A stretch of 64,000 nucleotides of DNA from Vicinamibacteria bacterium (GCA_019694155.1 JAIBCN010000138.1:1832-65831), one strand, 5' to 3'; shown: positions 4,551-43,792, numbered from the stretch's first letter. Numbers and translations are program-made. The notes: generated by a model from the letters alone, not told the origin.

Positions 4551-5003
4551 ATGAAGCGTCGAGATTTCACCAAAGCAATCGCGGGCATCGCCGCCGGCGT
4601 CGTGGCCGGAACCAGGGCCTTCGCGGATGACAAGCAGAAGCCCGCGGAGAAGGCGAAGCAGCACGGCTGCGGCGGCAAGGACGGCTGCGGCGGCGAAAAG
4701 GGCAAGGCGGCGGCGGCCGGCGACAAGGCCAAGCACGCCTGCAAGGGAATGAACGAGTGCAAGGGCCAGGGCGCCTGCAAGACCGGCGATGCCGGCTGCG
4801 CGGGAAAGAACTCCTGCAAGGGCAAGGGCGGTTGCGCCACCGCGGCCAAGCACGACTGCAAGGGCAAGAACGAGTGCAAGGGCCAGGGCGGTTGCAAGAC
4901 CGGCGACAACAAGTGCGCCGGGAAGAACTCCTGCAAGGGCAAGGGCGGCTGTCAGGTGCCCGTCCAGCACGACGCCAAGCCCGCGGCTCCGGCCAAGAAG
5001 TAA
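4551..5003 (+). CDS. Cys-rich RiPP precursor peptide (bufferin-like, BUF_6/12Cys-type) with twin-arginine signal peptide
   Basis: MKRRDFTKAIAGIAAGVVAGTRAFA (RRxF Tat-like signal). The core carries 14 Cys in two 39-aa repeats H[AD]CKG[MK]NECKGQG[AG]CKTGD..CAGKNSCKGKGGC. GGAG sits 8 nt before the ATG. It lies immediately upstream of the DUF692/DUF2063 genes. Confidence 0.8.
   Translation: MKRRDFTKAIAGIAAGVVAGTRAFADDKQKPAEKAKQHGCGGKDGCGGEKGKAAAAGDKAKHACKGMNECKGQGACKTGDAGCAGKNSCKGKGGCATAAKHDCKGKNECKGQGGCKTGDNKCAGKNSCKGKGGCQVPVQHDAKPAAPAKK
4731..4964 (+). repeat. 117-nt (39-codon) in-frame tandem duplication inside the precursor core
   Basis: Two near-identical nucleotide copies starting at ~4740 and ~4857 (tgcaaggg..aacgagtgcaagggccagggcg..tgcaagaccggcga...aagaactcctgcaagggcaagggcgg). 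Confidence 0.7.
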
Positions 5004-5029
5004 CCCGGCTCTTTCAGCCGTTCGCACCG

Positions 5030-5060
5030 GCCGCGGGGCTTCTTCCCCGCGGCTTTTTTC
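5030..5060 (+). terminator. intrinsic terminator / attenuator between precursor and modification genes
   Basis: GCCGCGGGG-cttctt-CCCCGCGGC perfect 9-bp stem followed by TTTTTTC. Located 27 nt after the precursor stop and 21 nt before the DUF692 start. Confidence 0.55.
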
Positions 5061-5080
5061 TTCTACACTGGATTTCGATC

Positions 5081-5977
5081 ATGACCTCCCCCTCAGCAGG
5101 CAATCGCTTCGGCTTCAAGGACCTGGGCATCGGGATCGGACTTCGCACCGTCCACTATCCGCACATCCTGTCGACCTGGCCGAAGATCGACTGGTTCGAG
5201 GTCCTTTCCGAGAACTACATGGACACGGGAGGCCGGCCCGCCTACGTCCTGGACCAGGTTGTCGAGCGCTACCCGGTGGCGCTTCACGGCGTCTCCATGT
5301 CCATCGGCAGCACCGACCCGCTGAACCGCGAACACCTGCGCAAGCTCAAGGCCCTGGCCGAACGCACGAAGGCCCACTGGGTTTCCGATCACCTCTGCTG
5401 GACCGGCGTCCTCGGCCGCAATACGCACGACCTTCTCCCCATGCCGTACACGGAGGAGGCCCTCGCCCACACCATCAAGCGGGCGAAACAGGTGAGCGAG
5501 ATCCTGGAACGGCCCCTCGTCCTCGAGAACCCCTCCTCGTATGTCGAATTCACGGGCTCGTCGATGCCCGAATGGGTGTTCCTGGCCCGCCTGGCCGAAG
5601 AGGCCGACTGCGGCCTGCTCCTCGACGTGAACAACGTCTACGTCAGCTCCTTCAACCACCGCTTCGACCCTGTCGAGTACATCAACGCGATCCCCGCGGA
5701 CCGCGTCGTCCAGTACCACCTGGCGGGGCACACCAACAAGGGCACGCACATCATCGACACTCACTCCGATCACGCGATCGACGAAGTGTGGAACCTCTAC
5801 TCCCTCGCCTGCCGGCGCACCGGCCTGGTGGCGACCCTCTACGAATGGGACGACGACATTCCGGCCTTCGATGTGGTGCTCGCGGAAGCGCGGAAGGCGG
5901 ATGCCTTCCGGAAAGCCGTGAGCCCGAAGGGCGGGCGTCCGCGGACGACACGGCCCGTCCCCGTGAGCGCCGCCTGA
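5081..5977 (+). CDS. MNIO (multinuclear non-heme iron oxidase) DUF692 / MbnB-like RiPP maturase
   Basis: FGFKDLGIGIGLRTVHYPHI...VSDHLCWTG...LENPSSYV...LLDVNNVYVS is the characteristic DUF692 TIM-barrel family. ATG at 5081 is in the frame of track ORF 4757..5977. Confidence 0.9.
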   Translation: MTSPSAGNRFGFKDLGIGIGLRTVHYPHILSTWPKIDWFEVLSENYMDTGGRPAYVLDQVVERYPVALHGVSMSIGSTDPLNREHLRKLKALAERTKAHWVSDHLCWTGVLGRNTHDLLPMPYTEEALAHTIKRAKQVSEILERPLVLENPSSYVEFTGSSMPEWVFLARLAEEADCGLLLDVNNVYVSSFNHRFDPVEYINAIPADRVVQYHLAGHTNKGTHIIDTHSDHAIDEVWNLYSLACRRTGLVATLYEWDDDIPAFDVVLAEARKADAFRKAVSPKGGRPRTTRPVPVSAA

Positions 5978-5978
5978 C

Positions 5979-6833
5979 ATGCGTCTTTCAAGTCTCCAGC
6001 GCTGGATGCAGTCGGTGGTGGTGCATCCCGGCACCACGGAGCAGGCCCTGCGATCGCGGAACGCCGCCCTTCATCTGAAGCCGGCCAGGCTCGAGTCGGT
6101 GCTTCTCCCCTCGAAGACTCTGAGCGCGGCCGAGCGGATCGCCATCTATCAGGAGATGTACCCGTTGCGGATGCGCGACGCTCTCGCCGCCGACTACCCC
6201 GGCCTCGAGCACTTCCTCGGGAACCGCTTCTGGGACTTCGTGACCGCCTACACGAGCGCCCACCCCTCGAAGGGCTACACCCTGAATCGACTCGGCGACC
6301 ATGTGCCAGGGTTCCTCGCCCGTCAGAAGAAGCTCAAGCCCCGAGGATTCCTTGCGGACCTGGCGCGCCTGGAGCTCGCCATCACGGAGTGCTTCGATGC
6401 GCCTGAAGCCGGACTGCTGCGCGCCGAGGAGATCGAGCGAATCGAGCCGGCGCGGCTCTCGGGGATGAAGCTCCTGACCGCGCCTTCGCTGCGCCTCGTC
6501 GAACTCGAGTGGAACGCGGCCGACTACCTCGACACCATTCGCGACGAGGAGCATCGTCATCCCAAGGCCAGGCGCGCGCGCTCCTTTGCGGCCGTGGTGA
6601 GGCGACAGTACTCCGTGTATCGCTTCCCGCTGACGGAGCCCGAGTTCCTGGTGCTGTCGGACCTCCGGGACGGGCGATCGATCTCGAACGTCGTCGAACG
6701 GGCTCTTGGCCGTCGAGGCTCACGCCGGGCCTCGGCCGCGGATTTCCCAGGGTGGTTTCGACGCTGGACCTCAGAGGGCGCATTCTGCGGAGTTCGGCCT
6801 GCGCGAGGTTCCGCCTCAGTCAATGCCCATTAA
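5979..6833 (+). CDS. DUF2063 partner protein (MbnC/BufC-like) of the MNIO enzyme
   Basis: ATG overlaps the DUF692 stop (TGACATG). The N-terminal ~100 aa matches the DUF2063 family (LQRWMQSVVVHPG...AIYQEMYPLRMRDALAADYPGLEHFLG). Confidence 0.85.
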   Translation: MRLSSLQRWMQSVVVHPGTTEQALRSRNAALHLKPARLESVLLPSKTLSAAERIAIYQEMYPLRMRDALAADYPGLEHFLGNRFWDFVTAYTSAHPSKGYTLNRLGDHVPGFLARQKKLKPRGFLADLARLELAITECFDAPEAGLLRAEEIERIEPARLSGMKLLTAPSLRLVELEWNAADYLDTIRDEEHRHPKARRARSFAAVVRRQYSVYRFPLTEPEFLVLSDLRDGRSISNVVERALGRRGSRRASAADFPGWFRRWTSEGAFCGVRPARGSASVNAH

Positions 6834-6920: not shown

Positions 6921-6942
6921 GTGATATCACTTGGAGATCACT

Positions 6943-7821
6943 ATGACCCAGACCATCAGAACCGAAAAGGCCGTATCCACGCTTCCGGGGTTGCTCATGC
7001 TGCCCGTCCTGCTTGTCGCCGCCGCCGCCTTCTTCCGGTTCGGAGTCGCGGCCATCCAGGGCGGCGGACCCCTGGGAGGGGTGCTTTTCTTCCTGGGAGG
7101 GGTCATCTGCTGCTTCTGCCTGGGCGGCCTCTTCGTGGTGAATCCCAACGAGGCGCGAGTGCTCCAGCTCTTCGGCGACTACGTCGGCACCGTGAAGGAG
7201 GACGGCCTGCGCTGGGCGAATCCCTTCTATACCAAGCGATCGATCATGCTCCGCGTGCGCAACTTCGAGAGCGCCAAGCTCAAGGTCAACGATCACGACG
7301 GCAACCCCATCGAGATCGGCGCGGTCGTCGTCTGGAAGGTCGTGGACACCGCGGAGGCGTGCTTCGAAGTCGACAACTACGAGCACTACATGAACGTGCA
7401 GACCGAGGCGGCGATCCGCAACCTCGCGAGCCACTACCCCTACGACGCGCATATCGAAGGCGAGTTCTCCCTGCGCGGCAGCACCGACGAGGTCGCGGCC
7501 CGGCTCAAGACCGAGATCCAGGCGCGCCTGGAAAAGGCGGGCGTGCGCGTGATCGAGGCCCGCATCTCCCACCTCGCCTATGCGCCTGAAATCGCCTCCG
7601 CCATGCTGCGCCGCCAGCAGGCGGGCGCCATCATCGCGGCGCGCCAGCGCATCGTCGAGGGCGCCGTGGGCATGGTCGAGCAGGCGCTCGACCTGCTCCA
7701 GAAGTCCGATCGGGTGAAGCTCGACGAAGAGCGCAAGGCGGCGATGGTGAGCAATCTCCTCGTGGTTCTCTGCGCGGATCGCGAGGCCCAGCCAGTAGTC
7801 AACACCGGATCGATCTACTGA
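6943..7821 (+). CDS. SPFH/band-7 domain membrane protein
   Basis: N-terminal TM helix followed by an SPFH core ([63 protein letters not shown]) and a coiled-coil tail. Confidence 0.8.
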
Positions 7822-7824
7822 GGA

Positions 7825-8031
7825 ATGGCCGAGCGCAAGCCGTTTCTCCTGCGTCTCGACGAGAGGACCTTCCTCGCCCTGAAACGCTGGGCCGACGATG
7901 ATCTGCGCTCCATCAACTCCCAGGTCGAGTTCCTGCTCCGCCGTGCGCTGGAGCAGGCAGGCCGATTGAACCGCGAGGCCACGGAACCGGAAGCTCCGAA
8001 ACCGGAGACGGGCGGCGGCGACAAAATTTGA
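7825..8031 (+). CDS. small ribbon-helix-helix (Arc/CopG-like) protein
   Basis: 68 aa. KPFLLRLDERTFLALKRWADDDLRSINSQVEFLLRRALEQ fits an RHH beta-strand plus two helices. The start abuts the SPFH stop (TGAggaATG), i.e. coupled. Confidence 0.5.
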   Translation: MAERKPFLLRLDERTFLALKRWADDDLRSINSQVEFLLRRALEQAGRLNREATEPEAPKPETGGGDKI

Positions 8032-8055
8032 CGCGATGCGCTACCGCCCGTTAAA

Positions 8056-9087
8056 TTGCGGGTACCTGTGAAGTTCAACGACCTCGCGATCGAATCGATC
8101 GCTTACGAGCTTCCGCCCGTGGCGGTCTCCACCGAGCAATTGGTGCGCCGTCTCGATCCCGTGCTTCGCAGGTTCAAGATCCCGGTCGACGCGATGCTGC
8201 AGCTCACCGGCATCATCGAGCGTCGCTTCTGGCCGCGCGGTCATCCCATGCATCAGGCGGCCACGGACGTCGCCAAGCGCGCGATCCAGCGCGCCGGCAT
8301 CACTCCCGGACAGGTCGGTATCCTGATCAGCACCTCGGTCTCGAAGGATTATCTCGAGCCCTCGATGGCGAGCCTCGTGCACGGCGACCTCGGCCTCACC
8401 CAGGAGTGCCGCAACTTCGATCTCGCCAACGCCTGCCTGGGTTTCCTGAACGGAATCGAGGTCGCGGGCCGGATGATCGAATCGGGCGTCGCGGACTATG
8501 CGCTCCTCGTCGACGGTGAAAGCGCCGGCGACGTGGTGGAGGCGACGATCACGCGCCTGCAGGACCCGAACACCACCTTGCGCGATTTCTGGGAAGCCTT
8601 CGCGACCCTCACTCTCGGTTCCGCCGCGGTGGCCATGGTTCTCACCAAGGGCTCCCTCTCCCAGACCACGCACCGCGTGAACGGCTGCGTCTCGCTCGCC
8701 GACACCGCGAATTCCCGGCTGTGCATGGGCACCGCCGAGCGCATGGTCACCGACTCCACGCGCCTCCTCAAGGCGGGCGTCGTTCTCGCGCAGAAGACAT
8801 GGGGAGTCGCTTCCAATCAGCTGAACCGCTGGTCGGAGCAGGGCATCGGTCACTACATCTGCCATCAGGTGGGCGCCTCTCACATGCAGGCGCTCGTCGA
8901 GGCCCTCGGGATCAACTTCGCGAAGTGCGTCCTCTCCTACCCCACCCACGGCAACGTCGGCCCCGCCGCGGTGCCGCTCACCCTGGCTCTCGCCACGGAG
9001 TCGGGCCGGGTGAAGGAAGGCGATCACGTGGCGCTCATGGGCATCGGCTCGGGCCTCAACGTGACCATGATGAGCGTGACCTGGTAG
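8056..9087 (+). CDS. FabH-like thiolase / 3-oxoacyl-ACP synthase III family (OleA-like condensing enzyme)
   Basis: Cys-His-Asn triad motifs are present: NACLGF, ICHQVGASH and THGNVGPAAVPLTLA. The likely real start is the GTG at ~8068 (VKFNDL). Confidence 0.8.
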   Translation: MRVPVKFNDLAIESIAYELPPVAVSTEQLVRRLDPVLRRFKIPVDAMLQLTGIIERRFWPRGHPMHQAATDVAKRAIQRAGITPGQVGILISTSVSKDYLEPSMASLVHGDLGLTQECRNFDLANACLGFLNGIEVAGRMIESGVADYALLVDGESAGDVVEATITRLQDPNTTLRDFWEAFATLTLGSAAVAMVLTKGSLSQTTHRVNGCVSLADTANSRLCMGTAERMVTDSTRLLKAGVVLAQKTWGVASNQLNRWSEQGIGHYICHQVGASHMQALVEALGINFAKCVLSYPTHGNVGPAAVPLTLALATESGRVKEGDHVALMGIGSGLNVTMMSVTW

Positions 9088-9155
9088 GCCGGAGTCACCC
9101 CGAGGCGCCCTCCTCCGGATCTGCGGCCGCCACTCCCTAAGAAGGCACCTTCAAC

Positions 9156-10019
9156 GTGGCAACCCCGGCCTGGCGCGACCTCTTCCCCTTTGAAAGCCGG
9201 ACGCTCCAGGTTCCTTCGGGCCGCCTCCACTACGTCGATGAAGGCCCCCGCACCGCGGACCCCATCCTCTGCCTTCACGGAAACCCCACCTGGGCGTTTC
9301 ACTACCGGCGCCTGATCGCGGAAGCGCGGCCCTTCCATCGGGTGATCGCCTTCGACCACATGGGCATGGGCCTCTCCGATCGGCCGACGAACTTCGCCTA
9401 TACCCTCGAGGGTCATGTGAAGAACGCGGTCGCCTTCGTCGACGCGCTGGACCTGAAGAAGATCACTCTCGTGGTCCACGACTGGGGCGGCGCCATCGGC
9501 ATGGGTATGGCGCTTGCCCGGCCGGAGCGCATCGCGCGGATCACCGTGATGAACACCTCCGCCTTCTTCATCCCCCGGCTGCCGAAGCGCATCGCCATCT
9601 GCCGCGCCGGGGTTCTCGGTGAGTTCATCACCCGGGGCCTCAACGCCTTCGCCCGCGCCGCCACCACCATGACCACCTCCATCCCTCTCGCGCCCGAGGT
9701 GAAGGCCGGGTACCTGGCGCCCTACGCTTCGTGGCGGCGGCGGATCGGGATCTGGAATTTCGTCCGCGACATACCGATGGAGCCGGATCACCGCTCGCGC
9801 GCCACCCTCGCGAAGATCGACCTTGGCTTGAAGTCCCTCCAGAAGCCGGTGCAGATCCTCTGGGGTGAGCGCGACTGGTGCTTCACCCCTCAGTTCCGCG
9901 AGGAGTGGCAGGCCCGGTTCCCCCGCGCCTATGTTCACAAGTTCGATGACGCCGGCCATTACCTGATCGAAGACGAACCCGGTGGGGTGATCGCGCGGAT
10001 TCGCGACTTCGCGTCGTGA
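9156..10019 (+). CDS. alpha/beta hydrolase, haloalkane-dehalogenase-like (OleB-like)
   Basis: HGNPTWAFHYRRLI plus the nucleophile elbow HDWGGAIGMG is the HLD-family signature shared by OleB. Confidence 0.8.
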   Translation: MATPAWRDLFPFESRTLQVPSGRLHYVDEGPRTADPILCLHGNPTWAFHYRRLIAEARPFHRVIAFDHMGMGLSDRPTNFAYTLEGHVKNAVAFVDALDLKKITLVVHDWGGAIGMGMALARPERIARITVMNTSAFFIPRLPKRIAICRAGVLGEFITRGLNAFARAATTMTTSIPLAPEVKAGYLAPYASWRRRIGIWNFVRDIPMEPDHRSRATLAKIDLGLKSLQKPVQILWGERDWCFTPQFREEWQARFPRAYVHKFDDAGHYLIEDEPGGVIARIRDFAS

Positions 10020-11611
10020 ACGTCGCCGACCTGCTCGCGGACTCGGCCCGCAAGGCGCCGGATCGCGACGCCATCATTGCGCCGGACGGGCGGTCCGGCT
10101 GGACCCGGATCCGCTACGACGCGCTCGACGCCGCGGTCACCGCCCACGCACGCGCGCTGAGGTCGGGTGGAGTTTCACGCGGCGAACTCGTCCTGGTAAT
10201 GGTGCCGCCCGGCATATCCCTCATCACTCTCTTCTACGGAATCCTCCGCCTCGGCGCGGTGCCCGTGATGATCGACCCCGGAATGGGGATGCGCGCCTTC
10301 ATGAAATGCGTGGAAACCACGGGAGCCAGGACGCTCGTCGGCGTCCCCAAGGCCCACGTCGCGCGACTCGTGTTCCCTCGCCCGTTTTCGTCGATCGAGC
10401 GGAAGTTCGTGATCGGCTCATCGTTCCTGGGCGCCCTCGGCCGCGCGTTGAAGCCCGTGGACGCAGGCGGGCCCGAGGCGACGCCAGTTCGCGAGGATCT
10501 TGGGCGGGACGATCTGGCCGCCATCCTCTTCACCTCGGGCAGCACCGGGCCGGCGAAGGGCGCGCGCTACACCGTGGGCAACTTCTTCGCCCAGCGTGAC
10601 GCCTTGCAGGCTCTCTACGGGTTCCAGCCCGGCGAGGTGGATCTCGCCGCCTTCCCTCTCTTCTCGCTGTTCGACGCGGCCTTCGGGATGACGAGCGTCA
10701 TTCCCGACATCAACCCCGCGAAGCCTGCGGAGTGCCGGCCCGAAAAGATCGTCGAGGCCATTCGCGCGCATCGCGCTACCTCCGCGTTCGGATCCCCCGC
10801 CATCTGGTCGCGGGTCGCCCCGTGGTGCGCCGCCAATGGCGTCGTGCTCCATGGCCTCAAGCGCGTCCTCATGGCGGGAGCCCCCGTGCCCCTCAAGCTC
10901 GTTCGCGCCATGCGCCCGATCCTGCCCGAGGGCGGCGACGTCCATACGCCCTACGGGGCCACCGAGTCGCTGCCCGTCGCGACCATCTCCGGCCGCGAGG
11001 TCGAAGCCCTCGGCGCGGCGGTGGAGGCGGGCGCGGGCACCTGCGTGGGCCGCCCCGCGTCGACCATCGATCTGCGATTGATTCCGATCCGCGACGAGGC
11101 CGTCGCTTCGATCGAGAGCGAGCCCATGCTCGGCACAGGAGAGGTGGGCGAGATCTGCGTGCGCGGAGGCGTCGTCACCCGCGCTTATCACAACCGCGAG
11201 GAGGCGACGGCCGTCTCCAAGATCGGGGCGGGTGATCTCACCTGGCATCGCATGGGCGACCTTGGATACATCGATGCGGACGGACGCCTCTGGTTCTGCG
11301 GCCGGAAGGCAGAGGCCGTGTGGACCGCGGAAGGGCCGATCTTCACGGATCGGATCGAGTGCCGCTTCTCCGGCGAGCCGCGGTGGCCGCGCGTCGCGTT
11401 GGTTGGCGTGGGACCCAGAGGGCACGCTCGCCCGGTACTGGTGCTCGAGGGCGCGGACGACGAGGGGCTGCGGACCGAGGCGCGGCGGATCGGGGGAATC
11501 GCGGACTTGCGCTTCCACCCCCGTTTCCCCGTGGACCGCCGTCACAACGCGAAGATCCATCGGCTGGATCTCGCGAAATGGGCGGCCGCGGGAACGCCCA
11601 ATCTTCGATAG
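10016..11611 (+). CDS. AMP-dependent synthetase/ligase (OleC-like beta-lactone synthetase family)
   Basis: Adenylation motifs TSGSTGPAKG and YGATE. The GTG start overlaps the hydrolase stop (GTGA), i.e. coupled. 531 aa. Confidence 0.8.
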   Translation: MNVADLLADSARKAPDRDAIIAPDGRSGWTRIRYDALDAAVTAHARALRSGGVSRGELVLVMVPPGISLITLFYGILRLGAVPVMIDPGMGMRAFMKCVETTGARTLVGVPKAHVARLVFPRPFSSIERKFVIGSSFLGALGRALKPVDAGGPEATPVREDLGRDDLAAILFTSGSTGPAKGARYTVGNFFAQRDALQALYGFQPGEVDLAAFPLFSLFDAAFGMTSVIPDINPAKPAECRPEKIVEAIRAHRATSAFGSPAIWSRVAPWCAANGVVLHGLKRVLMAGAPVPLKLVRAMRPILPEGGDVHTPYGATESLPVATISGREVEALGAAVEAGAGTCVGRPASTIDLRLIPIRDEAVASIESEPMLGTGEVGEICVRGGVVTRAYHNREEATAVSKIGAGDLTWHRMGDLGYIDADGRLWFCGRKAEAVWTAEGPIFTDRIECRFSGEPRWPRVALVGVGPRGHARPVLVLEGADDEGLRTEARRIGGIADLRFHPRFPVDRRHNAKIHRLDLAKWAAAGTPNLR

Positions 11612-11647
11612 GCTCTCGGTCCTAAGACAGAAGGAGACCGGAACGTC

Positions 11648-12856
11648 GTGGCAAAGCCGCTCGAAGGTGTGCGCGTCCTTGAGATGGGCCAGTTGATGGC
11701 CGGTCCGTTCGCGGGAACCATCCTCGCCTACTACGGCGCCGAGGTCATCAAGATCGAGGCGCCGAAGACGGGAGACCCCGTCCGCACCTGGCGCGGCGTG
11801 GACAGCGACGGCACATCCACCTGGTGGCGGTCGCTCGGCCGCAACAAGAAGTGCATCACCGTCGACCTTCGCACCGACGAGGGACGGGCGCTGGCCCGCG
11901 AGCTCGCGTGGAAGTGCGACGTGGTGGTGGAGAACTTCAAGCCCGGCACCATGGAGAAGTGGAAGCTCGGACCCGAGGACATCAAGGCGAAGAACAAGGA
12001 CGTCATCTACTGCCGCGTTTCCGGCTACGGCCAGACCGGTCCCTATTCGCACAAGCCCGGCTACGCCTCGGTGTGCGAGGGTGTCGGCGGCTTCCGCTAC
12101 GTGAACGGCTTCCCCGACCGCCCGCCCTGCCGCCCCAACCTCTCGCTCGGCGACTCGCTCGCTGGCCTCCACGCCGCTCTCGGCATCGTGATGGCCCTCT
12201 ACAACCGTTCGGGGCGGGCGGGACGCGAGGGCGGAGGCTCCGGACAGGAGATCGACGTCGCGATCTACGAATCGGTCTTCAACATGATGGAGGCGGTGGT
12301 TCCCGAGTTCGACCGCCTCGGCATGGTGCGCGAGCGGGAGGGCAGCAAGCTCACGGGCATCGTGCCCACGAACACATACCGCTGCAAGGACGGCCTCTAC
12401 GTGATCATCGGCGGCAACGGCGATTCGATCTACAAGCGGCTCATGACCGCCGCGGGCCGCGACGACATGGCGAGCAACCCCGAGTACGCGACGAACGCCG
12501 ACCGGGTTCGCAACGAGCCCGCCGTCGACGCCGCGCTTTCGGAGTGGACGGCGACGCTCACCGCGGCGGAGGTGGTGGCGAAGCTCGAGGCGGCGCAGGT
12601 CCCGGTGGGGTCGATCTACACGGTGAAGGACATGCTCGACGACCCTCACTACCAGGCACGCGGCATGTTCGAGGAGGTCGAGGTCGGAGGCCGTCCCCTG
12701 AAGATCCCGGCGATGACTCCGAAGCTCTCCGGTACTCCGGGCGGGACCGCGTGGCCCGGACCCGAGGTCGGATCCCACAGCGTCGAGGTCCTGAAGTCGA
12801 TTCTCGGCAAGACCGACGCGGATATCGAGGCCCTCAAAGCCCATGGCACCATCTAG
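11648..12856 (+). CDS. family III CoA-transferase (CaiB/BaiF-like)
   Basis: VRVLEMGQLMAGPFAGTILAYYGAEVIKIE...DVVVENFKPG is the family III CoA-transferase N-terminus. AAGGAG lies upstream of the GTG. Confidence 0.85.
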   Translation: MAKPLEGVRVLEMGQLMAGPFAGTILAYYGAEVIKIEAPKTGDPVRTWRGVDSDGTSTWWRSLGRNKKCITVDLRTDEGRALARELAWKCDVVVENFKPGTMEKWKLGPEDIKAKNKDVIYCRVSGYGQTGPYSHKPGYASVCEGVGGFRYVNGFPDRPPCRPNLSLGDSLAGLHAALGIVMALYNRSGRAGREGGGSGQEIDVAIYESVFNMMEAVVPEFDRLGMVREREGSKLTGIVPTNTYRCKDGLYVIIGGNGDSIYKRLMTAAGRDDMASNPEYATNADRVRNEPAVDAALSEWTATLTAAEVVAKLEAAQVPVGSIYTVKDMLDDPHYQARGMFEEVEVGGRPLKIPAMTPKLSGTPGGTAWPGPEVGSHSVEVLKSILGKTDADIEALKAHGTI

Positions 12857-13508
12857 GAAACCGGCCTCATCGGCCGCCCCGATCTCTACTCTCGACCTGT
12901 ACCGCAGCCGCGGCCTCGGCTCGCGCGTGGGCTTCGGAACGCGCCCCGCCGTGGTGGTCGTCGACTACATCGTCGGATTCACCGATCCGAAATCGCCCCT
13001 CGCCGGCGACTTCTCCCGCGAGCTTCGCGCGACGAAGGCCCTTCTCGACGCCATGCGGCGGCGGCGGCTTCCCGTGTATTTCACGACCACCGCCTACGAC
13101 AAGGCCATGACCGAGGCCGGCGTCTTCGTGCGCAAAGTGCCGTCGCTCGCCGTGCTGCAGAGAGGTTCGCGCTGGGTGGCGATCGACCCTTCCCTCAAGC
13201 CGCGCAAGGGCGAAGTGATCATCGAGAAGCAATACGCGTCCGCCTTCTTCGGAACCCCACTCGCCTCGACGCTGCACGCGCAGGGTGTGGACACGCTGAT
13301 CGTCACGGGCTGCACGACCAGCGGATGCGTGCGCGCGACCGCGGTGGACGGGCTCCAGCACGGCCTAAGGGTCATCGTGCCCCGCGAGTGCGTGGGCGAC
13401 CGGGCGAGCGGGCCGCACGAGGCGAACCTCATCGACATCGACGGCAAGTACGGCGACGTCATGGCGGTGAAGGATGTGATCGCGCGGGTGAACGCGACCA
13501 CCGCCTAG
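12843..13508 (+). CDS. isochorismatase-family cysteine hydrolase
   Basis: AVVVVDYIVGF...LIVTGCTTSGCVRATAVDG carries the conserved catalytic Cys of the isochorismatase/CSHase fold. 14-nt overlap with the upstream gene. Confidence 0.8.
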   Translation: MAPSRKPASSAAPISTLDLYRSRGLGSRVGFGTRPAVVVVDYIVGFTDPKSPLAGDFSRELRATKALLDAMRRRRLPVYFTTTAYDKAMTEAGVFVRKVPSLAVLQRGSRWVAIDPSLKPRKGEVIIEKQYASAFFGTPLASTLHAQGVDTLIVTGCTTSGCVRATAVDGLQHGLRVIVPRECVGDRASGPHEANLIDIDGKYGDVMAVKDVIARVNATTA

Positions 13509-13522
13509 CCGGATTCCGCGGC

Positions 13523-14563
13523 TTACCCGCTCGCCGCGTCGTGGAGGAGGTCATCCCAGAGGATGACCCGGTTCGCCTGACCCGCCAGGCGCTGGCGGGC
13601 GTCGACCACCTTCGAGAAAAGGGCGAACGCGTCGAGGGGCCCGGCCGCGGCGCGCGCGAGGGCATCCGCAGCCGCCGTGTGCACCAGCCACTCGCGTCCC
13701 CCGCCCGCCTGGAGCACCGCGATGTCGCGCAGAAGCGAGGCGAAGAGGTGAAGTGTCTCGTCGCGGTCGGTTTCCCGGGCCCCGGCCATGGACGAGGCCG
13801 CGTAGGCCGACAGTTCCGCGTCCTTGGCGCCGCCGAAGCGCCGCAGGATGAGATCGCGGAGGTCGTCGAGGGGCGGGCGGCTCTGACGGGCGCGGGCCAG
13901 GCTGCCCCCCGAGGCCTGGGCCCGGAGCTTCGCCTCCGCCGGGTCGACGCCGTCCTCGATGAGGTGTTGCTCGATCAGTCCCTGGGGCACACCGGACAGC
14001 CGGATGGAGGCGCAGCGCGACCGGATGGTCGGCCGCAGAAAGGCAGGCGAGGACGAGGTGAGAAGCACCACCGCGCCCGCGGCCGGCTCCTCCAGGCTCT
14101 TGAGGAATGCGTTCGCCCCGCTCACGTTCATGCGCTCGGCATCGACGATCACGGCCACGCGTCTCTTCGCTTCCCAGGCCCGGCGCGTGAGCCACGCGCC
14201 CAGCAGGCGCATGTATTCGACGTCGATGATCTTCCCAACGCGCTCCTTCTTGTCCTTCGCCCGGTCCACGGCGTGGGCGCTCAACTCCTCGTCGATGCCC
14301 AGCACCTCGTCGCGGCCGATGATCACCACATCGGGGTGGATGTTCTCGGCACTCCTTCGGCAGTGCGAGCAGGACTCGCACGGGCCCTGACGAGGCGACT
14401 CGCACACCAGAGTGCGCGAAACCACCTCGGCGAGGGTTCTCTTCCCGACGCCTTGCAGGCCGTGGATGAGGGTCGCGTGATGCAGGCGCCCCTCGGTGAA
14501 CGAGCGCCACAGGCCCTCCCGGGCGAACTCATGCCCGAGCACGGTTGCGAAGGGCGCGCTCAC
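13523..14563 (-). CDS. holB: DNA polymerase III delta-prime subunit
   Basis: Walker-A-like GVGKRTLA, the zinc module CESCSHCR, and SRC (sensor) in RSRCASIRLSG. The GTG start at 14563 overlaps the tmk stop (GTGA). Confidence 0.8.
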   Translation of the reverse strand: MSAPFATVLGHEFAREGLWRSFTEGRLHHATLIHGLQGVGKRTLAEVVSRTLVCESPRQGPCESCSHCRRSAENIHPDVVIIGRDEVLGIDEELSAHAVDRAKDKKERVGKIIDVEYMRLLGAWLTRRAWEAKRRVAVIVDAERMNVSGANAFLKSLEEPAAGAVVLLTSSSPAFLRPTIRSRCASIRLSGVPQGLIEQHLIEDGVDPAEAKLRAQASGGSLARARQSRPPLDDLRDLILRRFGGAKDAELSAYAASSMAGARETDRDETLHLFASLLRDIAVLQAGGGREWLVHTAAADALARAAAGPLDAFALFSKVVDARQRLAGQANRVILWDDLLHDAASG

Positions 14564-15174
14564 GCGAGATCTCCGAACCGCTCCTTCACCCGCGCGGCGA
14601 TCCGGCCGGAGAGGGTCTTCACGTCGACCGCGCCGTCGAAGACCTCGAAACGGCACGGCTCGGCTTTCGCGAGCTCGAGAAAGGCCCGGCGCACCTTCTC
14701 GTGAAAGGCGGGAGCCTCGGCATCGAGACGATTGGACGCGCCGCGCTGCCGCAGGCGTTCGAGCGCCACCTCGACATCGAGGTCGATGAGGATGGTGAGG
14801 TCGGGAGTGAGGCCGCCGATGTGCCGGAACACCGAGGGGATGAGGTCCCCCACACCGCGGCCCACCGACTGGTAGGCAAGAGAGGAGTCCTGATACCGGT
14901 CCGAGATCACGATCCGCCTTTCCGCCAGGGCGGGCCTTATCACCTCATCCAGGTGCTGGGCGCGGTCGGCCAGAAAGAGAAGGGCCTCGACATCCGGAAT
15001 GGGAGTGGTGGTCGAATCGAGGAGGATCTCGCGCACCCTCCGCCCCAGGGGCGTGCCGCCGGGCTCCCGGGTGAGGAGCGCCCGATCGCCGAAATGGCGC
15101 GCGAGAGCTTCGGCCTGCGTGCTCTTGCCGCTGGCCTCGATGCCCTCGAACGTGATGAAGAGTCCCTGATCCAT
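14560..15174 (-). CDS. tmk: thymidylate kinase
   Basis: FITFEGIEASGKSTQ P-loop and DRY motif; 204 aa. Confidence 0.9.
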   Translation of the reverse strand: MDQGLFITFEGIEASGKSTQAEALARHFGDRALLTREPGGTPLGRRVREILLDSTTTPIPDVEALLFLADRAQHLDEVIRPALAERRIVISDRYQDSSLAYQSVGRGVGDLIPSVFRHIGGLTPDLTILIDLDVEVALERLRQRGASNRLDAEAPAFHEKVRRAFLELAKAEPCRFEVFDGAVDVKTLSGRIAARVKERFGDLA

Positions 15175-15225: not shown

Positions 15226-16098
15226 GTGCGAATTCTGATCACCGGCGCCGGCGGTCTTCTCGGCGGACGTCTGGCCGCCCTGCTCTCGTCCGACCACGAG
15301 GTTACGGGTGTCGTTCGAGGCCAGTCCGCGCCCGAGGGAGTACGGTCGCTCGTCGCCGACCTCGCGGACCACGCATCGATCGCAACCATTTTCGAGGAGG
15401 CCCGTCCCGAGGCCGTCATCCACTGCGCGGCGCTCGCCGATGCCGAGATCTGCGAGCGAGAGCCCGAACGGGCGCGGCTCGAGAACCCGACGCTCACCAA
15501 GGGCCTCGCCGCCGTCTGTCGCGCGCGAGGGACGCGCCTCGTCACCCTCTCCACCGACCTCGTGTTCGATGGAGGCCGGGCCTTCTCGACCGAGTCCTCT
15601 CCCGCCCGGCCGCTCAACGAATACGGTCGCTCGAAACTTGCCGCGGAAGCGGAAACTCTCGAGGCCTCCGCCGATTTCGTGGTTCTGCGCATCGCCCTGG
15701 TGAGCGGCCAGGGTCATGGGTCGCGGCTGACCGCCACGGAGAGCGTGGCGAAGCGGCTGCGCAACGGCGAGTCGATCACCCTCTATGAGGACGAGTGGCG
15801 CACCCCCATAGACCCCGAGTCGGTGGCCGACGCGATCCGCGCCGTCCTGCGGCGTCCCGGCGCCGCCGGTACTTTCCACGTCGCGGGCGCCGAGCGCGTC
15901 ACCCGGGTGGAACTGGGAGAGCGGGTGGCGGCGGGGCTGAAGCTCGATGGCTCCCTCATCCGCCAGGCTTCCCAATCGGCGCATCGCGGCGCTCCGCGCC
16001 CCCGCGACACATCCCTCGACATCACGCGCGCCCGCGAGGAACTCGGCTGGACGCCGCGCTCGCTCGACCAGGCCCTTCGCGAAGGCCGCTCCGGCTAG
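15226..16098 (+). CDS. NAD(P)-dependent extended-SDR reductase, dTDP-4-dehydrorhamnose reductase (RfbD)-like
   Basis: MRILITGAGGLLGG Rossmann motif. ~290 aa, typical of the RfbD family. Confidence 0.75.
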   Translation: MRILITGAGGLLGGRLAALLSSDHEVTGVVRGQSAPEGVRSLVADLADHASIATIFEEARPEAVIHCAALADAEICEREPERARLENPTLTKGLAAVCRARGTRLVTLSTDLVFDGGRAFSTESSPARPLNEYGRSKLAAEAETLEASADFVVLRIALVSGQGHGSRLTATESVAKRLRNGESITLYEDEWRTPIDPESVADAIRAVLRRPGAAGTFHVAGAERVTRVELGERVAAGLKLDGSLIRQASQSAHRGAPRPRDTSLDITRAREELGWTPRSLDQALREGRSG

Positions 16099-28536: not shown

Positions 28537-28702
28537 GGCCGGAGGTTATCAAGGCGCGCCCCCTCCGGTCCCCGGCCCCCGGACCGGGATGGGTCATTGG
28601 GACCATTGCCACGCAGGGCGTCTCCGGGTCTACACTTCGAGTCGCGGTGGCCCGCGCGACCACCGGAGGCTGGTTTTGGGCGTCTCGAGAAAGGCCCGGA
28701 AG

Positions 28703-31700
28703 ATGGGCGAGGTTTCACTCACGCGACGTGTGGCGGCCGGAGCCGCCATTGCGGCGACCGTCGCCGGCGCGTTGACCCTCGGCAGGTGGTGGGTAGCGGG
28801 CTGGCAACGATCCGACTTCTCCCCCGATTTCGGCGGCCCCATGGCGCCCCTCGCGGCGATTCTCGTTCTCGTCCTCGGCGGCGCGACCGCCCTTCACGCC
28901 CTTTGGCCGGCCACGCAGTTCATCCGGAGGCTGGGTCTTGCGGCGATCTCCGCAACGCTCGTTGGCGCCCTTCTCGCCGCAACGCAGGCCACATTGCTGA
29001 GCCCGGCCTGGACCCAATGGAAGAAGGGCTCCCCCGATTTTCTGGGCTTCCTTCCCGTCGGCAACATGTCCATCCTCACCATCGCCTCCCTGCTCCTCGC
29101 CGCCGCGGGGCTCATGGCGGCCCTCGACGTTGTGCCCCAGAACCCGGGATCGTGGTGGCGGTGGGTTCCTGCCCCGGTCGGACTGGGGCTCAGCGGGGCC
29201 GTGGGGCTGCTCTATGCGTCAGGCGGCCTCCTCGTCGACGGGACCAGGATCGTCCCCATGGCGTTGACTACCGCCGTCGTGCTCGCGCCGCTACACCTGG
29301 CCCTGCTGCTGCTGGGGCCTCTGGGCGACGTCATTTCCCGGATCAGGGCCCATCACGCGGGCCCCCTGCCCGCCCTCGCCCGGTCCTTCAACGCCCGGCT
29401 CGCCGCCGCCGGCGGAGTCATCGGCCTTCTCATTCTCCTCGCCGGCATCCTCTATGTGCGGCGGGAGCAGGCGAACACCCGCATGGTGATGTTCGAACAG
29501 CTCGACGCCATCACGCGCTTGAAGGCGGCGCAGGTGAGTGCTTGGAGGGGCGAACGGATGGCCGAGGCCATCTTCCTGCGCAACACCCCTGGTGTGGCGA
29601 AGGACATCTCGGCCCTGGTCGATCGCCCCGCCGACGGGGCCGCGCGGCAGGCCGCACTGGGCTGGCTCGCCGGCATCAAGGGCGGCGAGCGTTATCAGTC
29701 GATTCGCGTCTTCGAACCTTCGGGCCGCCTGCTTCTGTCGCTCCCCGCCACCGCGTCCCCTTCGGCGCCGGAGGCGCTCAACCGGGCGCTCTCCAGATCG
29801 GAGATCGTCTTCACGGACATTCATAGAAACACCGATGACCCGTCCACCCATTTCGACCTCGTTGTCCCCATCGTTCCCCCGCCTGCCGCCAGGCGAGGAC
29901 CGGCCGGCAAGGCGGTCGCCGCGATCGTGCTTCGCCTCGATCCCCGTCAGTCCCTGTTTCCGCTCGTCGAAACCTGGCCGGTCCATACTCAGACAGGCGA
30001 GGTACTGCTCGTCCATCATCAGAGCGGGACGGTCTCATACCTGAACCGGCCGGATGTCCCGGCCCGTCTTGCGACCGAAGCGATGCCGGGCGCCGCGGGC
30101 GGCCTGCCGCCCGACCATACGGACGGCGCCCGCGAAGCACGTGACTACCGCGGTGTGCTCGTATTGGAGGCGGTTCAGAGGATCCCCCAGTCCCCGTGGA
30201 TCCTCATCGCCAAGATCGATCGCGCGGAGGCATTCGCGCCCACCCGGGGACAGGTTGCGCAGACGGCGCTGCTCGTCGCTCTGCTTCTCGTCTCCATGGC
30301 CCTGGTCTTCGCCTTCGTGGCGCGCGAGCGGCAGACCCTCTTCCTGAGGCGGGCCCTCGCGGCCGAGCGTCAGGGAACCACCCTCGCCCAGCGGCTGGCG
30401 CTCGTCACCGAGAACGCGAACGACGTCATCTTCCTCTTCGACCCCGCCATGCGGATCGTCGAAGTCAACGAGCGCGTGACTTCCATGCACGGATGGACGC
30501 CGGCCGAAATGAAGGCCATGACCCTCCTCGATCTGCACGCTCCGGACGCGCGGCTGCCGTGCAGTGAGGCCTTTGCCCGCGTCTCCAAGGGTGCGGGCGA
30601 GGTCCTCGAAACCGTTCATCGCCGGAAGGATGGCTCCAGCCTCCCCGTGGAGATCAGCGCGCGGCCCGTGACTCTGGGGGGCGAGAAATATCAGCTCGCG
30701 ATCGTACGGGACATCACACAACGGAAGGCGCATGAAGCGGAGATTCAAAGGCTCAATCGGCTCTATGCCGCGCTGAGCCAGGTCAACGAGACCATCGTTC
30801 GCGCCACCCAACGCGACGAGTTCCTGAACGATGTCTGCGACCGACTGGTCAAACACGGCGGCTTTCCCATGGCCTGGATCGCCTGGACCGACCCCGCCAC
30901 CGGGTCCATCAGCCCGGTGGCGCAATCGGGCGACCGGGATGGCCACCTGGATCGGGTGCGGGCGCGATCCGCGACAAGCACCGGCCCGGCGGGGCGAGCC
31001 ATCGCGACGAACCGGCCCTTCTCCTGCGCGGACCATCGCGACGAACCGGCGGTGCTGGAATGGCACTCGTTCCTGAAAGAAGCCGGTTTCTCGGCAGCGC
31101 TCGCCGTGCCCATCCGAATCTCCGGATCCGCGGTCGGCGCCCTCACCGTCTACACCGCGGAAGAAGACACCTTTGGGGCGCAGGAGACAGAACTCATCGA
31201 AGAGGTTGCGGCGGACATCGCTTTCGGTCTCGAGGCCCTCGACGTCCAGAAGCGACGGCGAGATGCGGAGAGCGCGCTGCGCGAGAGTGAAGAACGCCTG
31301 CGCCTGGCGCTTGCCGCGGCGCAGCAGGGCCTGTTCGACCTGGATCTGCGCACGGGCAAGGCGGTGGTGAGTCCCGATTACGCCACCATGCTCGGCTACG
31401 ATCCGGAGACCTTCACCGAAACCAACCAGGCCTGGCTCGACCGGCTGCACCCGGACGATCGCGAGGCCGTCGGCGCCGCGTTCAGCGAATACATGGACGG
31501 CCGGCGGCCCGACTACCGGATCGAGTTCCGGCAGCGCACGGCCAGCGGGGCCTACAAGTGGATCCTCTCGCTCGGGCGAGTGGTGGAGCGCGCCCCGGAC
31601 GGCACGCCCCTGCGCATGCTCGGCACCCACACCGACATCACGGAACGCAAGACCCACGAAGCCGAGATCCTGGCCGGGCAGGCCCGGCTGACCGCAACCC

Positions 31701-32698
31701 TCGACGCGATCCCCGACCTGATGTTCGAACTCGGCCTCGACGGCCGCTACTACGCCTTCCACTCTCCGAACACGGACCTCCTTGCCGCTCCACCCGAAGC
31801 GCTCATCGGCCGTACGGTCGCTGAACTCCTCCCCCCGCTGGCCGCCGCCGTCGTGCTCGAAGCCCTGAACGAAGCGAATGCGGTCGGCCGCTCTCTCGGA
31901 AGTCAGTTCGAACTGGACCTGCCCGTGGGCCGTCGGTGGTTCGAGCTTTCGGTGTCCCGCGCCCATGTGGAACCCGGACAGGGTCCGCGCTTCATCGTCC
32001 TCTCCCGCGACATCACGGAGCGCAAGAATGCCGAACAGGCGATGAAGGCGTCCCTTCGCGAAAAGGAGGCCCTGCTGAAGGAGGTCCATCACCGGGTAAA
32101 GAACAACCTCCAGGTCATCACGAGCCTCCTGCGCCTGGAGACCGGGCGGAGCAGCGACCAGGGCACGAAGCTCGTTCTTCGGGAGATGCAGGGCCGCATT
32201 CGCTCCATGGCCCTCCTCCACGAGACCCTGTACCGAAGCGGGAATTTCGCGCAGGTCGACCTCGCGGCCTACCTGCGGCAGCTCGCCACCCAGCTCTTCC
32301 GAGGGCAGAACGCGGATCCCGCGCGAATCGACCTGGCGCTGGATCTCGCACCCACGCTGCTCGCCATCGACCAGGCCATCCCCTGCGGCCTCATCGTGAA
32401 CGAGCTCGTCACGAACGCCATGAAGTACGCATTCTCCGACGGGCGCAAGGGAGAGATCCGGATCGTCGCCGGCTCGCAGGGCGGGCTCATTCGCCTGGTG
32501 GTGAGCGACAATGGCCGGGGCCTGCCTCCCGACTTCGACGCGCGGCGCGACGCGTCCCTGGGCCTTCAGCTCGTGGCCGACCTGGCGAGACAGCTCACCG
32601 GCGACCTCGACGTGCAGCCCTCTCCGGCCGTTTTCACCATTACGTTCCCCGCGGATCTGCGCCGTCCGACCGTGGAGATCACCCGCCCGCCCGCCTGA
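28703..32698 (+). CDS. multi-domain sensor histidine kinase (polytopic membrane sensor, PAS, GAF, PAS, PAS, HisKA_2, HATPase_c)
   Basis: ATG at 28703 (MGEVSLTRRV), giving 1331 aa. ~7-8 TM helices plus an extracytoplasmic segment, three PAS blocks (DITQRK, DITERK, DITERK), a GAF, HHRVKNNLQVITSLL (HisKA_2 H-box), and G-boxes DNGRGLP..GLGL. The upstream part of track ORF 26921..32698 is antisense to nagZ/ldcA. Confidence 0.8.
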   Translation: MGEVSLTRRVAAGAAIAATVAGALTLGRWWVAGWQRSDFSPDFGGPMAPLAAILVLVLGGATALHALWPATQFIRRLGLAAISATLVGALLAATQATLLSPAWTQWKKGSPDFLGFLPVGNMSILTIASLLLAAAGLMAALDVVPQNPGSWWRWVPAPVGLGLSGAVGLLYASGGLLVDGTRIVPMALTTAVVLAPLHLALLLLGPLGDVISRIRAHHAGPLPALARSFNARLAAAGGVIGLLILLAGILYVRREQANTRMVMFEQLDAITRLKAAQVSAWRGERMAEAIFLRNTPGVAKDISALVDRPADGAARQAALGWLAGIKGGERYQSIRVFEPSGRLLLSLPATASPSAPEALNRALSRSEIVFTDIHRNTDDPSTHFDLVVPIVPPPAARRGPAGKAVAAIVLRLDPRQSLFPLVETWPVHTQTGEVLLVHHQSGTVSYLNRPDVPARLATEAMPGAAGGLPPDHTDGAREARDYRGVLVLEAVQRIPQSPWILIAKIDRAEAFAPTRGQVAQTALLVALLLVSMALVFAFVARERQTLFLRRALAAERQGTTLAQRLALVTENANDVIFLFDPAMRIVEVNERVTSMHGWTPAEMKAMTLLDLHAPDARLPCSEAFARVSKGAGEVLETVHRRKDGSSLPVEISARPVTLGGEKYQLAIVRDITQRKAHEAEIQRLNRLYAALSQVNETIVRATQRDEFLNDVCDRLVKHGGFPMAWIAWTDPATGSISPVAQSGDRDGHLDRVRARSATSTGPAGRAIATNRPFSCADHRDEPAVLEWHSFLKEAGFSAALAVPIRISGSAVGALTVYTAEEDTFGAQETELIEEVAADIAFGLEALDVQKRRRDAESALRESEERLRLALAAAQQGLFDLDLRTGKAVVSPDYATMLGYDPETFTETNQAWLDRLHPDDREAVGAAFSEYMDGRRPDYRIEFRQRTASGAYKWILSLGRVVERAPDGTPLRMLGTHTDITERKTHEAEILAGQARLTATLDAIPDLMFELGLDGRYYAFHSPNTDLLAAPPEALIGRTVAELLPPLAAAVVLEALNEANAVGRSLGSQFELDLPVGRRWFELSVSRAHVEPGQGPRFIVLSRDITERKNAEQAMKASLREKEALLKEVHHRVKNNLQVITSLLRLETGRSSDQGTKLVLREMQGRIRSMALLHETLYRSGNFAQVDLAAYLRQLATQLFRGQNADPARIDLALDLAPTLLAIDQAIPCGLIVNELVTNAMKYAFSDGRKGEIRIVAGSQGGLIRLVVSDNGRGLPPDFDARRDASLGLQLVADLARQLTGDLDVQPSPAVFTITFPADLRRPTVEITRPPA

Positions 32699-41556: not shown

Positions 41557-42054
41557 CTACTTCTTCCTCCTGGCGGAGGCGGGGGTGGCCGTCAGTTTCC
41601 GAATGAGCAGGGCGGCGTCGATGGCCGCGGCCGCCGCTTCCCGGCCCTTGTTGTGGCGGCCGGGCTTCGACCTCGCGATGGCGTGCGCGGGCTTGGTGAC
41701 GGTGAGGACGCCAAAGGCCACGGGCACCCCGGTGGTGAGACTCGCCTGCATGATGCCGCGGGCCGACTCGCGGGCGATGTGGTCGTAGTGGTCGGTCTCG
41801 CCCTTGATCACAGCACCCAGGGCCACGATTGCGTCGTAGCGGCCGGTCAAGGCCGCGGTCTGGGCGATGAGCGGCAGCTCGAAGGCGCCGGGGACGATCT
41901 GCACTTCCGCCGAGGCTCCGACTTCGGCGGTGTACTCGAGGGCGCCCAGGGAAAGCCCGGCCACCACGGAGTCGTTGAAGTGGGACTGCAGGATCAGAAT
42001 GCGCAGCCCGCGGCCGTTTCCCGGGCCGGCGAGTGCGATGGGAGGAGTCTTCAC
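41557..42054 (-). CDS. ribH: 6,7-dimethyl-8-ribityllumazine synthase
   Basis: 165 aa. GAFELPLIAQ and ALGAVIKGETDHYDHIA motifs. Confidence 0.9.
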   Translation of the reverse strand: MKTPPIALAGPGNGRGLRILILQSHFNDSVVAGLSLGALEYTAEVGASAEVQIVPGAFELPLIAQTAALTGRYDAIVALGAVIKGETDHYDHIARESARGIMQASLTTGVPVAFGVLTVTKPAHAIARSKPGRHNKGREAAAAAIDAALLIRKLTATPASARRKK

Positions 42055-42836: not shown

Positions 42837-42842
42837 CGCCTT

Positions 42843-43730: not shown

Positions 43731-43792
43731 GGTTTTCTTTCTTTATCTGGATCCCGGCTTTCGCCGCGATGTGCAGGGCGTTTCCAGTCGCT

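Follow-up and report, generated by a model that had tools for sequence, protein, structure and literature searches.

An oleABC operon lacking a linked oleD in a clade of soil Vicinamibacteria

Which enzyme carries out the reduction step of head-to-head olefin biosynthesis where oleA, oleB and oleC stand together and oleD does not follow? The question is raised by a 64,000-nucleotide (nt) stretch of DNA (the window; GCA_019694155.1 JAIBCN010000138.1:1832-65831) from a metagenome-assembled genome of a soil Vicinamibacteria bacterium (Acidobacteriota). At positions 8056-13508, five co-directional open reading frames (ORFs) of coding-type composition (GC content at third codon positions, GC3, of 0.86-0.90) were assigned by Pfam and NCBIfam models to a FabH-fold thiolase, a haloalkane-dehalogenase-like (HLD-like) alpha/beta hydrolase, an AMP-binding enzyme, a family III CoA-transferase and an isochorismatase-fold hydrolase. 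We consider it probable that this is an ole (head-to-head olefin) operon of the Vicinamibacteria lineage, that its linked oleD was lost or split off at the oleC/oleD junction, and that the reductase is supplied in trans.

Identity of the thiolase, hydrolase and ligase

The thiolase is closer to characterised OleA than to FabH. Searches against the Protein Data Bank (PDB) yielded 289 bits (E 4e-85) for the Xanthomonas campestris OleA structures (3ROW and others) versus 86 bits for the best FabH. Likewise, the protein scored 419 bits on NF006720 (cut-off 285), whereas the FabH models TIGR00747 and NF006829 gave 113 bits (cut-off 292) and 120 bits (cut-off 249). FabH enzymes (beta-ketoacyl-ACP synthase III, KAS III) have the same thiolase fold and Cys-His-Asn triad. 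Unlike them, the window protein carries the OleA-specific glutamate and the signature EPxx[AS]x16DxxNACL, which conforms to the published OleA search signature EPxx[AS]x(14,18)DxxNACL (PMC7158056). As in canonical OleA, the catalytic residues C123, H265 and N295 (numbering of the 339-residue protein) are retained together with E97 of the EP motif, the equivalent of the partner-subunit Glu117 of OleA.

The hydrolase shows the features expected of OleB, namely an HLD-like fold, an Asp-His-Asp triad, the HGNPTW motif and a position beside oleC. It scored 108 bits on Abhydrolase_1 and 145-155 bits on HLD models, all under the cut-off; the canonical OleB of locus L004 displays the same pattern. The best PDB match was 8OOH/8CKP, deposited as 'alpha/beta fold hydrolase'. 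Shared with canonical OleB are HGNPTW, HDWGG (containing the Asp nucleophile), WGERDW (the acid) and GHY (the His). The OleA-specific glutamate and the OleB triad, which the sequence-only reading of this DNA had named as the residues to look for, are thus both present.

The ligase scored 551 bits on PRK09274 (cut-off 478), 477 bits on OlefBLtnSynXan and 377 bits on OlefBLtnSynShew, the last two under their strict lineage-specific cut-offs. The corresponding values of the canonical OleC of L004 are 620, 543 and 440 bits, the last two again below the cut-off. Because this canonical oleABCD cluster matches the same models at similar scores and likewise stays below the cut-off on the lineage-specific OleC and OleD models, sub-cut-off scores are no argument against Ole membership. 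Any ligase model outside the OleC-containing PRK09274 family gave at most 161 bits and any PDB ligase at most 74 bits, and no fatty-acyl-CoA or fatty-acyl-AMP ligase (FACL/FAAL) model was the best match. With its core ANL motifs intact, the protein would be assigned by its sequence to the beta-lactone synthetases of the ANL superfamily. The PDB sequence searches returned no OleB, OleC or OleD structure among their matches.

Judged by family scores and motifs, the genes at 8068-9087, 9156-10019 and 10016-11611 are therefore orthologues of OleA, OleB and OleC with catalytic motifs intact. The OleA/OleB/OleC arrangement seen earlier in the consecutive thiolase, HLD-like hydrolase (HGNPTW) and AMP-ligase is borne out as a true Ole set by family models, structure scores and motifs alike, with a refined start for oleA. 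The features of the region are as follows.

7825..8031, + strand: small ORF, 68 amino acids (aa), weakly ribbon-helix-helix (RHH)/Arc-like (Pfam RHH_5 E 7e-4, Arc E 0.056, both sub-threshold)
8028..8057, + strand: sigma-70-like promoter motif TTGACG-18-TAAATT (consensus scan, pattern match only)
8068..9087 (ORF 8056-9087), + strand: oleA, thiolase, 339 aa (OleA structures, NF006720)
9156..10019, + strand: oleB, haloalkane-dehalogenase-like beta-lactone decarboxylase homologue, 287 aa (Abhydrolase_1, HLD models, motifs)
10016..11611, + strand: oleC, olefin beta-lactone synthetase homologue, 531 aa (PRK09274, OlefBLtnSynXan, OlefBLtnSynShew)
11648..12856, + strand: family III (CaiB/BaiF) CoA-transferase, 402 aa (CoA_transf_3)
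12843..13508, + strand: isochorismatase-fold cysteine amidohydrolase, 221 aa (Isochorismatase)
13523-14656, - strand: holB (DNA_pol3_delta2 134 bits, TIGR00678)
14560-15174, - strand: tmk (dTMP kinase TIGR00041, 176 bits)
15226..16098, + strand: RmlD/MAT2B-family extended short-chain dehydrogenase/reductase (SDR), 290 aa (RmlD_sub_bind 179 bits)

The true start of oleA is almost certainly the GTG at 8068 and not the TTG at 8056, since the match to the family profile starts at this codon and the form of the protein in public assemblies has 339 aa. The stop codon of oleB and the start codon of oleC share the sequence GTGA at 10016-10019 (4-nt overlap), the translational coupling of hydrolase and ligase that had been proposed. 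The CoA-transferase gene starts 36 nt past the oleC stop with its own ribosome-binding site (GAAGGAG) and overlaps the hydrolase gene by 14 nt; both are probably co-transcribed with oleC. The hydrolase stop and the stop of the convergent holB lie 14 nt apart, and holB and tmk bound the ole operon on its downstream side.

Gene order and selection across the clade

The closest homologues of the window OleC are from Vicinamibacteria, one of them, on a 76-kb NCBI contig, being 100% identical. The clade that we compared consists of 21 loci, namely the window, 15 GTDB species (one genome per species scanned; OleC 75-84% identical) and five metagenome-contig loci. In all 21 the gene next to oleC is either the CoA-transferase (15 loci) or the convergent holB (six loci: L003, L012, L013, L018, L020 and L086), and in none is it oleD. 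OleD is an NADPH-dependent 2-alkyl-3-ketoalkanoate reductase, an extended SDR of the 3beta-HSD type. No homologue of it was found in the clade loci within up to 10 kb on either side, and tblastn of the whole 64-kb window with two canonical OleD proteins returned chance matches only (E of at least 0.09). OleD is accordingly missing from the cluster and its surroundings, in line with the earlier statement that it is not adjacent. Twenty further loci from related organisms repeat this gene order, which shows that the arrangement is not due to chance.

Outside this clade (OleC identity of 55% or less) the picture is the opposite: oleD follows oleC immediately in 55 of 67 loci and lies 0.5-7.5 kb from it in five more, and the remaining seven, which have no oleD, have no oleA and oleB either. 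Sister Vicinamibacteria (L004, L021, L024, L088-L090) possess ordinary oleABCD clusters. Locus L005 has the upstream glyS-glyQ-recO neighbourhood and the recO-oleA linkage in common with the window yet keeps oleD, which places the break exactly at the oleC/oleD junction. In a neighbour-joining tree of concatenated OleABC, computed with no bootstrap values, the OleD-less clade is monophyletic and sits on a long stem.

The ratio of nonsynonymous to synonymous substitution rates (dN/dS) across the clade is 0.03 for oleA, 0.09 for oleB and 0.13 for oleC (dS ~0.7-1.2). These values are comparable to or lower than those of the neighbouring genes tmk (0.10), recO (0.11) and holB (0.20). Such strong purifying selection indicates that the oleABC trio is still functional, and the retention of most positions invariant among canonical Ole proteins (counts below) points the same way. 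OleA is 97% identical within the OleD-less clade. We considered this degree of conservation as a trait of the clade and rejected the idea, since the canonical pair L088/L024 also has 96% identity in OleA (86% in OleC).

Two further observations concern ole loci outside the clade. On the 5.1-Mb contig of L005 (7740-21608), the order recO...oleABCD is followed within ~400 nt by megasynthase genes of the polyunsaturated fatty acid synthase type (pfa-like); this layout resembles the Pfa-Ole linkage known from Shewanella. In many loci of Verrucomicrobiota and Planctomycetota (L025, L030, L034-L038, L040-L047 and others) oleC-oleD is present and neither oleA nor oleB was detected in the 10 kb upstream of it; these two genes are either dispersed or too divergent for the tblastn thresholds used.

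Source of the reduction step

Observed directly are the gene identities, the conserved motifs, the selection and the architecture across the clade; the end product and the enzyme behind the reduction are inferred. By analogy with the established Ole pathway (PMC7064751, PMC7158056, bioRxiv 10.1101/856955), OleA would condense two fatty acyl-CoAs head-to-head to a 2-alkyl-3-ketoalkanoic acid, which an NAD(P)H-dependent reductase encoded elsewhere would convert into the 3-hydroxy acid; this enzyme may be an OleD encoded apart from the cluster, some other SDR or, possibly, the RmlD-like enzyme encoded downstream of the operon. OleC would then adenylate the 3-hydroxy acid (using ATP) and close the beta-lactone, and OleB would decarboxylate the beta-lactone to a long-chain cis-olefin destined for the membrane. 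The chemistry itself probably follows the conventional route, one of its steps being outsourced.

Several points weigh against an olefin operon served in trans. The literature regards OleD as indispensable and as a component of an OleBCD complex (PMC7158056). That oleD resides elsewhere in the clade genomes is an assumption, and a search of the window, the clade loci and the best 120 relatives of OleD identified no reductase for the pathway. These relatives (at least 56% identity) were obtained from a set of 5.8 billion proteins with a canonical Vicinamibacteria OleD as the query, and were clustered with 59 OleDs of known gene context. Among them, no group was fit to be the unlinked OleD of the clade: each sizeable group either holds a context-known canonical member or shares contig sizes with canonical OleC matches, and the two candidates on long contigs, P0139 and P0128, both lie within ordinary oleABCD clusters. 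The long clade contigs (589, 221, 102, 86 and 76 kb) were all absent from the contigs of the best 120 matches. The lack of both a long clade contig and an orphan group in this set is a mild argument against an orthologous unlinked oleD. Finally, substitutions fixed in the OleC of the clade (H187V, R434A and F34Y) could signal a changed reaction.

These points leave room for a widespread soil lineage that has no reductase of the OleD type at all, having either recruited another reductase class, for example an SDR of the RmlD/MAT2B type, or altered its OleB/OleC chemistry towards a non-classical product. Taken as a whole we hold this only as a tentative alternative, and each of its two specific forms, considered below, is less likely than that.

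The first form is a truly changed pathway, in which the 2-alkyl-3-keto acid made by OleA would, for want of a reductase, be turned into a long-chain ketone or some other lipid, and the roles of OleB and OleC would be modified. We judge it unlikely. OleA alone is known to give ketones, as its beta-keto acid product decarboxylates spontaneously (bioRxiv 10.1101/856955), and such a scheme fits the absence of OleD from the window and from the clade loci, together with the lack of an orphan group among its best 120 relatives. Changes in the enzymes themselves fit it as well. The clade retains 46 of 48 positions in OleA, 54 of 59 in OleB and 103 of 110 in OleC that are at least 95% invariant among canonical proteins; clade-fixed changes at such positions comprise F34Y, H187V (10 residues past the STGPAKG loop) and R434A (in GRKAE-R-V) in OleC, and S47A, C71M, A198G and A274E in OleB. 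Moreover, the stem branch is faster for OleB and OleC than for OleA, as seen from the identities to the outgroup, which for the clade versus canonical Vicinamibacteria are 51% and 59% (OleB), 47% and 53% (OleC), and 62% and 65% (OleA). In the published OleBCD complex (PMC7158056) OleD is associated with OleB and OleC, and the acceleration of these two is suggestive of adaptation after the loss of OleD, which agrees with the main reading too. Against a changed pathway, the Asp-His-Asp triad and HGNPTW motif of OleB and the core ANL motifs of OleC are all intact, and the coupling of oleB to oleC and the strong purifying selection are most simply explained by an unchanged beta-lactone chemistry that needs a 3-hydroxy acid.

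The second form is non-orthologous displacement, in which the RmlD/MAT2B-family SDR at 15226-16098 would reduce the 2-alkyl-3-keto acid and thereby complete a four-enzyme pathway at this locus. The gene was rightly identified from the window's sequence as the nearest SDR, 3.6 kb downstream. It encodes the sole reductase near the operon; in the rest of the window the only other SDR or reductase is a 3-hydroxyacyl-CoA dehydrogenase of the beta-oxidation type at 42.8 kb, which belongs to a trio with a thiolase and an enoyl-CoA hydratase (42051-44932, - strand, beta-oxidation/butyrate type) unlinked to ole. In all clade loci that extend far enough, the RmlD-like gene occupies the same spot behind tmk. 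Its product retains the TGxxGxxG and YxxxK motifs and shares the RmlD substrate-binding domain with dTDP-4-dehydrorhamnose reductase. Unlike RmlD, it falls under the rmlD equivalog cut-off (158 bits on TIGR01214, cut-off 224), so that it is a member of the family at the Pfam level only and may act on another substrate. A look at the surroundings of the gene found tmk, holB and a gene for a cNMP/FHA protein, and no rmlABC genes. The best PDB matches are 2GGS and MAT2B.

Set against these features are four others. The SDR gene forms a separate unit, divergent from tmk and standing behind holB and tmk, which run convergently to the operon on the minus strand. The block holB-tmk|RmlD-like is also present in the distant locus L087 (52% identity for Tmk, 37% for HolB), where nitrite-reductase and other genes and no ole genes occupy the far side of holB; the adjacency of the SDR is therefore older than, and independent of, ole. 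No gene of the region is less conserved or evolves faster than that of the SDR (59% aa identity, dN/dS 0.24), in contrast to the tightly constrained OleA, OleB and OleC. It also belongs to a different SDR subfamily, scoring 37 bits on an OleD model versus 370 bits for true OleD, whose nearest structure is the 3beta-HSD-type NSDHL. The RmlD-like relative P0325 occurs on contigs that end at holB. By gene order, the SDR belongs to the tmk/holB neighbourhood, to which oleABC was juxtaposed. The earlier suggestion that it stands in for OleD is possible, but the evidence leans against it (the L087 block, the 37 bits and the dN/dS of 0.24); it is a weak candidate on its sequence, and we regard displacement by this enzyme as improbable.

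A further reading, also put forward from the sequence alone, joins all five genes of 8056-13508 into a single variant pathway for lipids or beta-lactones, with the CoA-transferase and the cysteine hydrolase acting on Ole intermediates. Their shared orientation, the 36-nt gap and the 14-nt overlap make co-transcription likely, both extra genes are present in 14 of the 21 clade loci, and both are under purifying selection (dN/dS 0.085 for the CoA-transferase and 0.12 for the hydrolase). The transferase matches CoA_transf_3 with 403 bits over profile positions 1-365 of 366, as expected of a full-length domain, and its nearest structures are 4ED9, succinate-hydroxymethylglutarate CoA-transferase and YfdE. 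The hydrolase scored 124 bits on Isochorismatase and 228 bits against the N-carbamoylsarcosine amidohydrolase 26ST, an enzyme of small amides, followed by further hydrolases of the isochorismatase family (4L07/4L08, 3OT4 and 1NBA). Its motif 'tgcttsgcvratavd' aligns with the Cys-containing GCxTxxCV region, and its sequence would place it in the CSHase/maleamate amidase subgroup. Neither protein reached an NCBIfam equivalog cut-off.

The distribution of the pair speaks against a role in Ole chemistry. The transferase is missing from six of the 21 loci, including basal members: in L003, L086 and L018 oleC abuts holB and leaves no room for the pair, and L012, L013 and L020 also do without it. In L019 the transferase stands alone, and the L094 sequence breaks off within the transferase gene. 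In the OleABC tree the pair-less L003/L086 and then L018 branch at the base of the clade and the crown mostly has both genes, so that the pair arrived once oleD had been lost, and basal lineages live without it. Outside the clade, the closest relatives of the transferase (71-73% identity) do not lie beside ole genes, and the transferase-hydrolase pair recurs with no ole genes in L096, L105, L154 and L171. The closest of these copies (L096, 5971-13003) adjoins hydantoinase A and B genes, a context that suggests an N-carbamoyl or hydantoin-type catabolic module. The window genes at 11648-13508 strongly match N-carbamoylsarcosine/maleamate amidohydrolases and family III CoA-transferases of the SUGCT/YfdE-like kind; unlike the pair of L096, they sit downstream of oleC. 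The pair is a later accessory insertion between oleC and holB and looks like an independent catabolic module for small acids and small amides. A five-gene pathway is largely refuted by these comparative data and is in our view very unlikely.

The reading of the trio as FabH (KAS III) plus a fatty-acyl-AMP/CoA ligase, an acyl-activation module unrelated to Ole that would agree with the public annotations '3-oxoacyl-ACP synthase III' and 'fatty acid CoA ligase family protein', is refuted by the family and PDB scores given above (289 versus 86 bits for OleA and FabH structures, 113-120 bits on FabH models with cut-offs of 249-292, and 477 and 377 bits for the ligase on olefin beta-lactone synthetase models versus at most 161 elsewhere) and by synteny, the sister-lineage orthologues being located in canonical oleABCD clusters, and has next to no chance of being correct.

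Flanking genes and relation to known Ole systems

The sigma-70-like motif TTGACG-18-TAAATT ends 11 nt 5' of the oleA start and overlaps the end of the small RHH-like ORF; the consensus scan found two sites versus 0.7 expected in shuffled sequences. Three other loci of the clade (L001, L003 and L086) likewise have an ORF of 64-68 aa called at this spot before oleA, and on the strength of its weak RHH/Arc likeness the 68-aa ORF of the window may encode a regulator. Together with a gene for a Band7/SPFH membrane-scaffold protein it lies directly 5' of oleA in the same orientation (6931-8031, + strand). These two genes are kept in most of the OleD-less clade and were not called beside oleA in the gene tables of the canonical loci L004, L005 and L088-L090; they may be co-regulated with the ole operon or regulate it.

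Farther upstream, between recO and the ole region, lies a bufferin-type operon for a ribosomally synthesised and post-translationally modified peptide (4551-6833, + strand), which is kept in most clade loci. It consists of a small precursor-like ORF, an MNIO maturase and a DUF2063/HvfC-like partner. The maturase scored 358 bits on the BufB model NF050167 (cut-off 310), and the true start of its annotated ORF (4757-5977) is probably further downstream. The region ~28600-32698 (+ strand), which has a strongly negative AT skew, encodes a large multi-PAS/GAF sensor histidine kinase of the HisKA_2/HWE type; the ORF, listed at 1925 aa, overlaps minus-strand genes at its 5' end, which indicates that the true start lies later.

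A search of one literature library for ole genes in Acidobacteria/Vicinamibacteria found no paper linking them, and the loci described here would extend ole-type hydrocarbon biosynthesis to the Acidobacteriota. With OleA, OleB and OleC kept under strong selection and no OleD linked to them, this clade of abundant soil Acidobacteriota (15 species or more) offers a natural test of whether the reductase step can be outsourced or replaced. For genome mining, the clade loci would be missed by cluster callers that require oleD or apply a +/-5 kb rule, and the adjacent CoA-transferase and amidase caution against taking neighbours for pathway genes.

Compared with the canonical oleABCD clusters of Xanthomonas campestris, Shewanella oneidensis and Micrococcus luteus, and of L004, L088 and L090, the window has the same order of OleA, OleB and OleC, the oleB/oleC overlap, the motifs and the matching NCBIfam models. 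It differs from them in that no oleD follows oleC, a trait common to its clade of 15 or more species, and that none lies within ~50 kb. Published ole contexts comprise oleABCD with 0-3 intervening genes, oleBC fusions, and oleACD with no oleB for beta-lactone natural products (PMC7064751); oleABC with no oleD is not among these types. The lipstatin (lstABCD) and nocardiolactone (nltABCD) clusters, which are of the oleACD type, share with the window an OleA-type condensation and an OleC-type beta-lactone synthetase (bioRxiv 10.1101/856955). In these clusters OleB is absent, OleD is kept and OleA occurs as heterodimeric pairs. The window displays the opposite composition, a single OleA and an intact OleB with no OleD, and the end product to be expected is therefore an olefin and not a beta-lactone.

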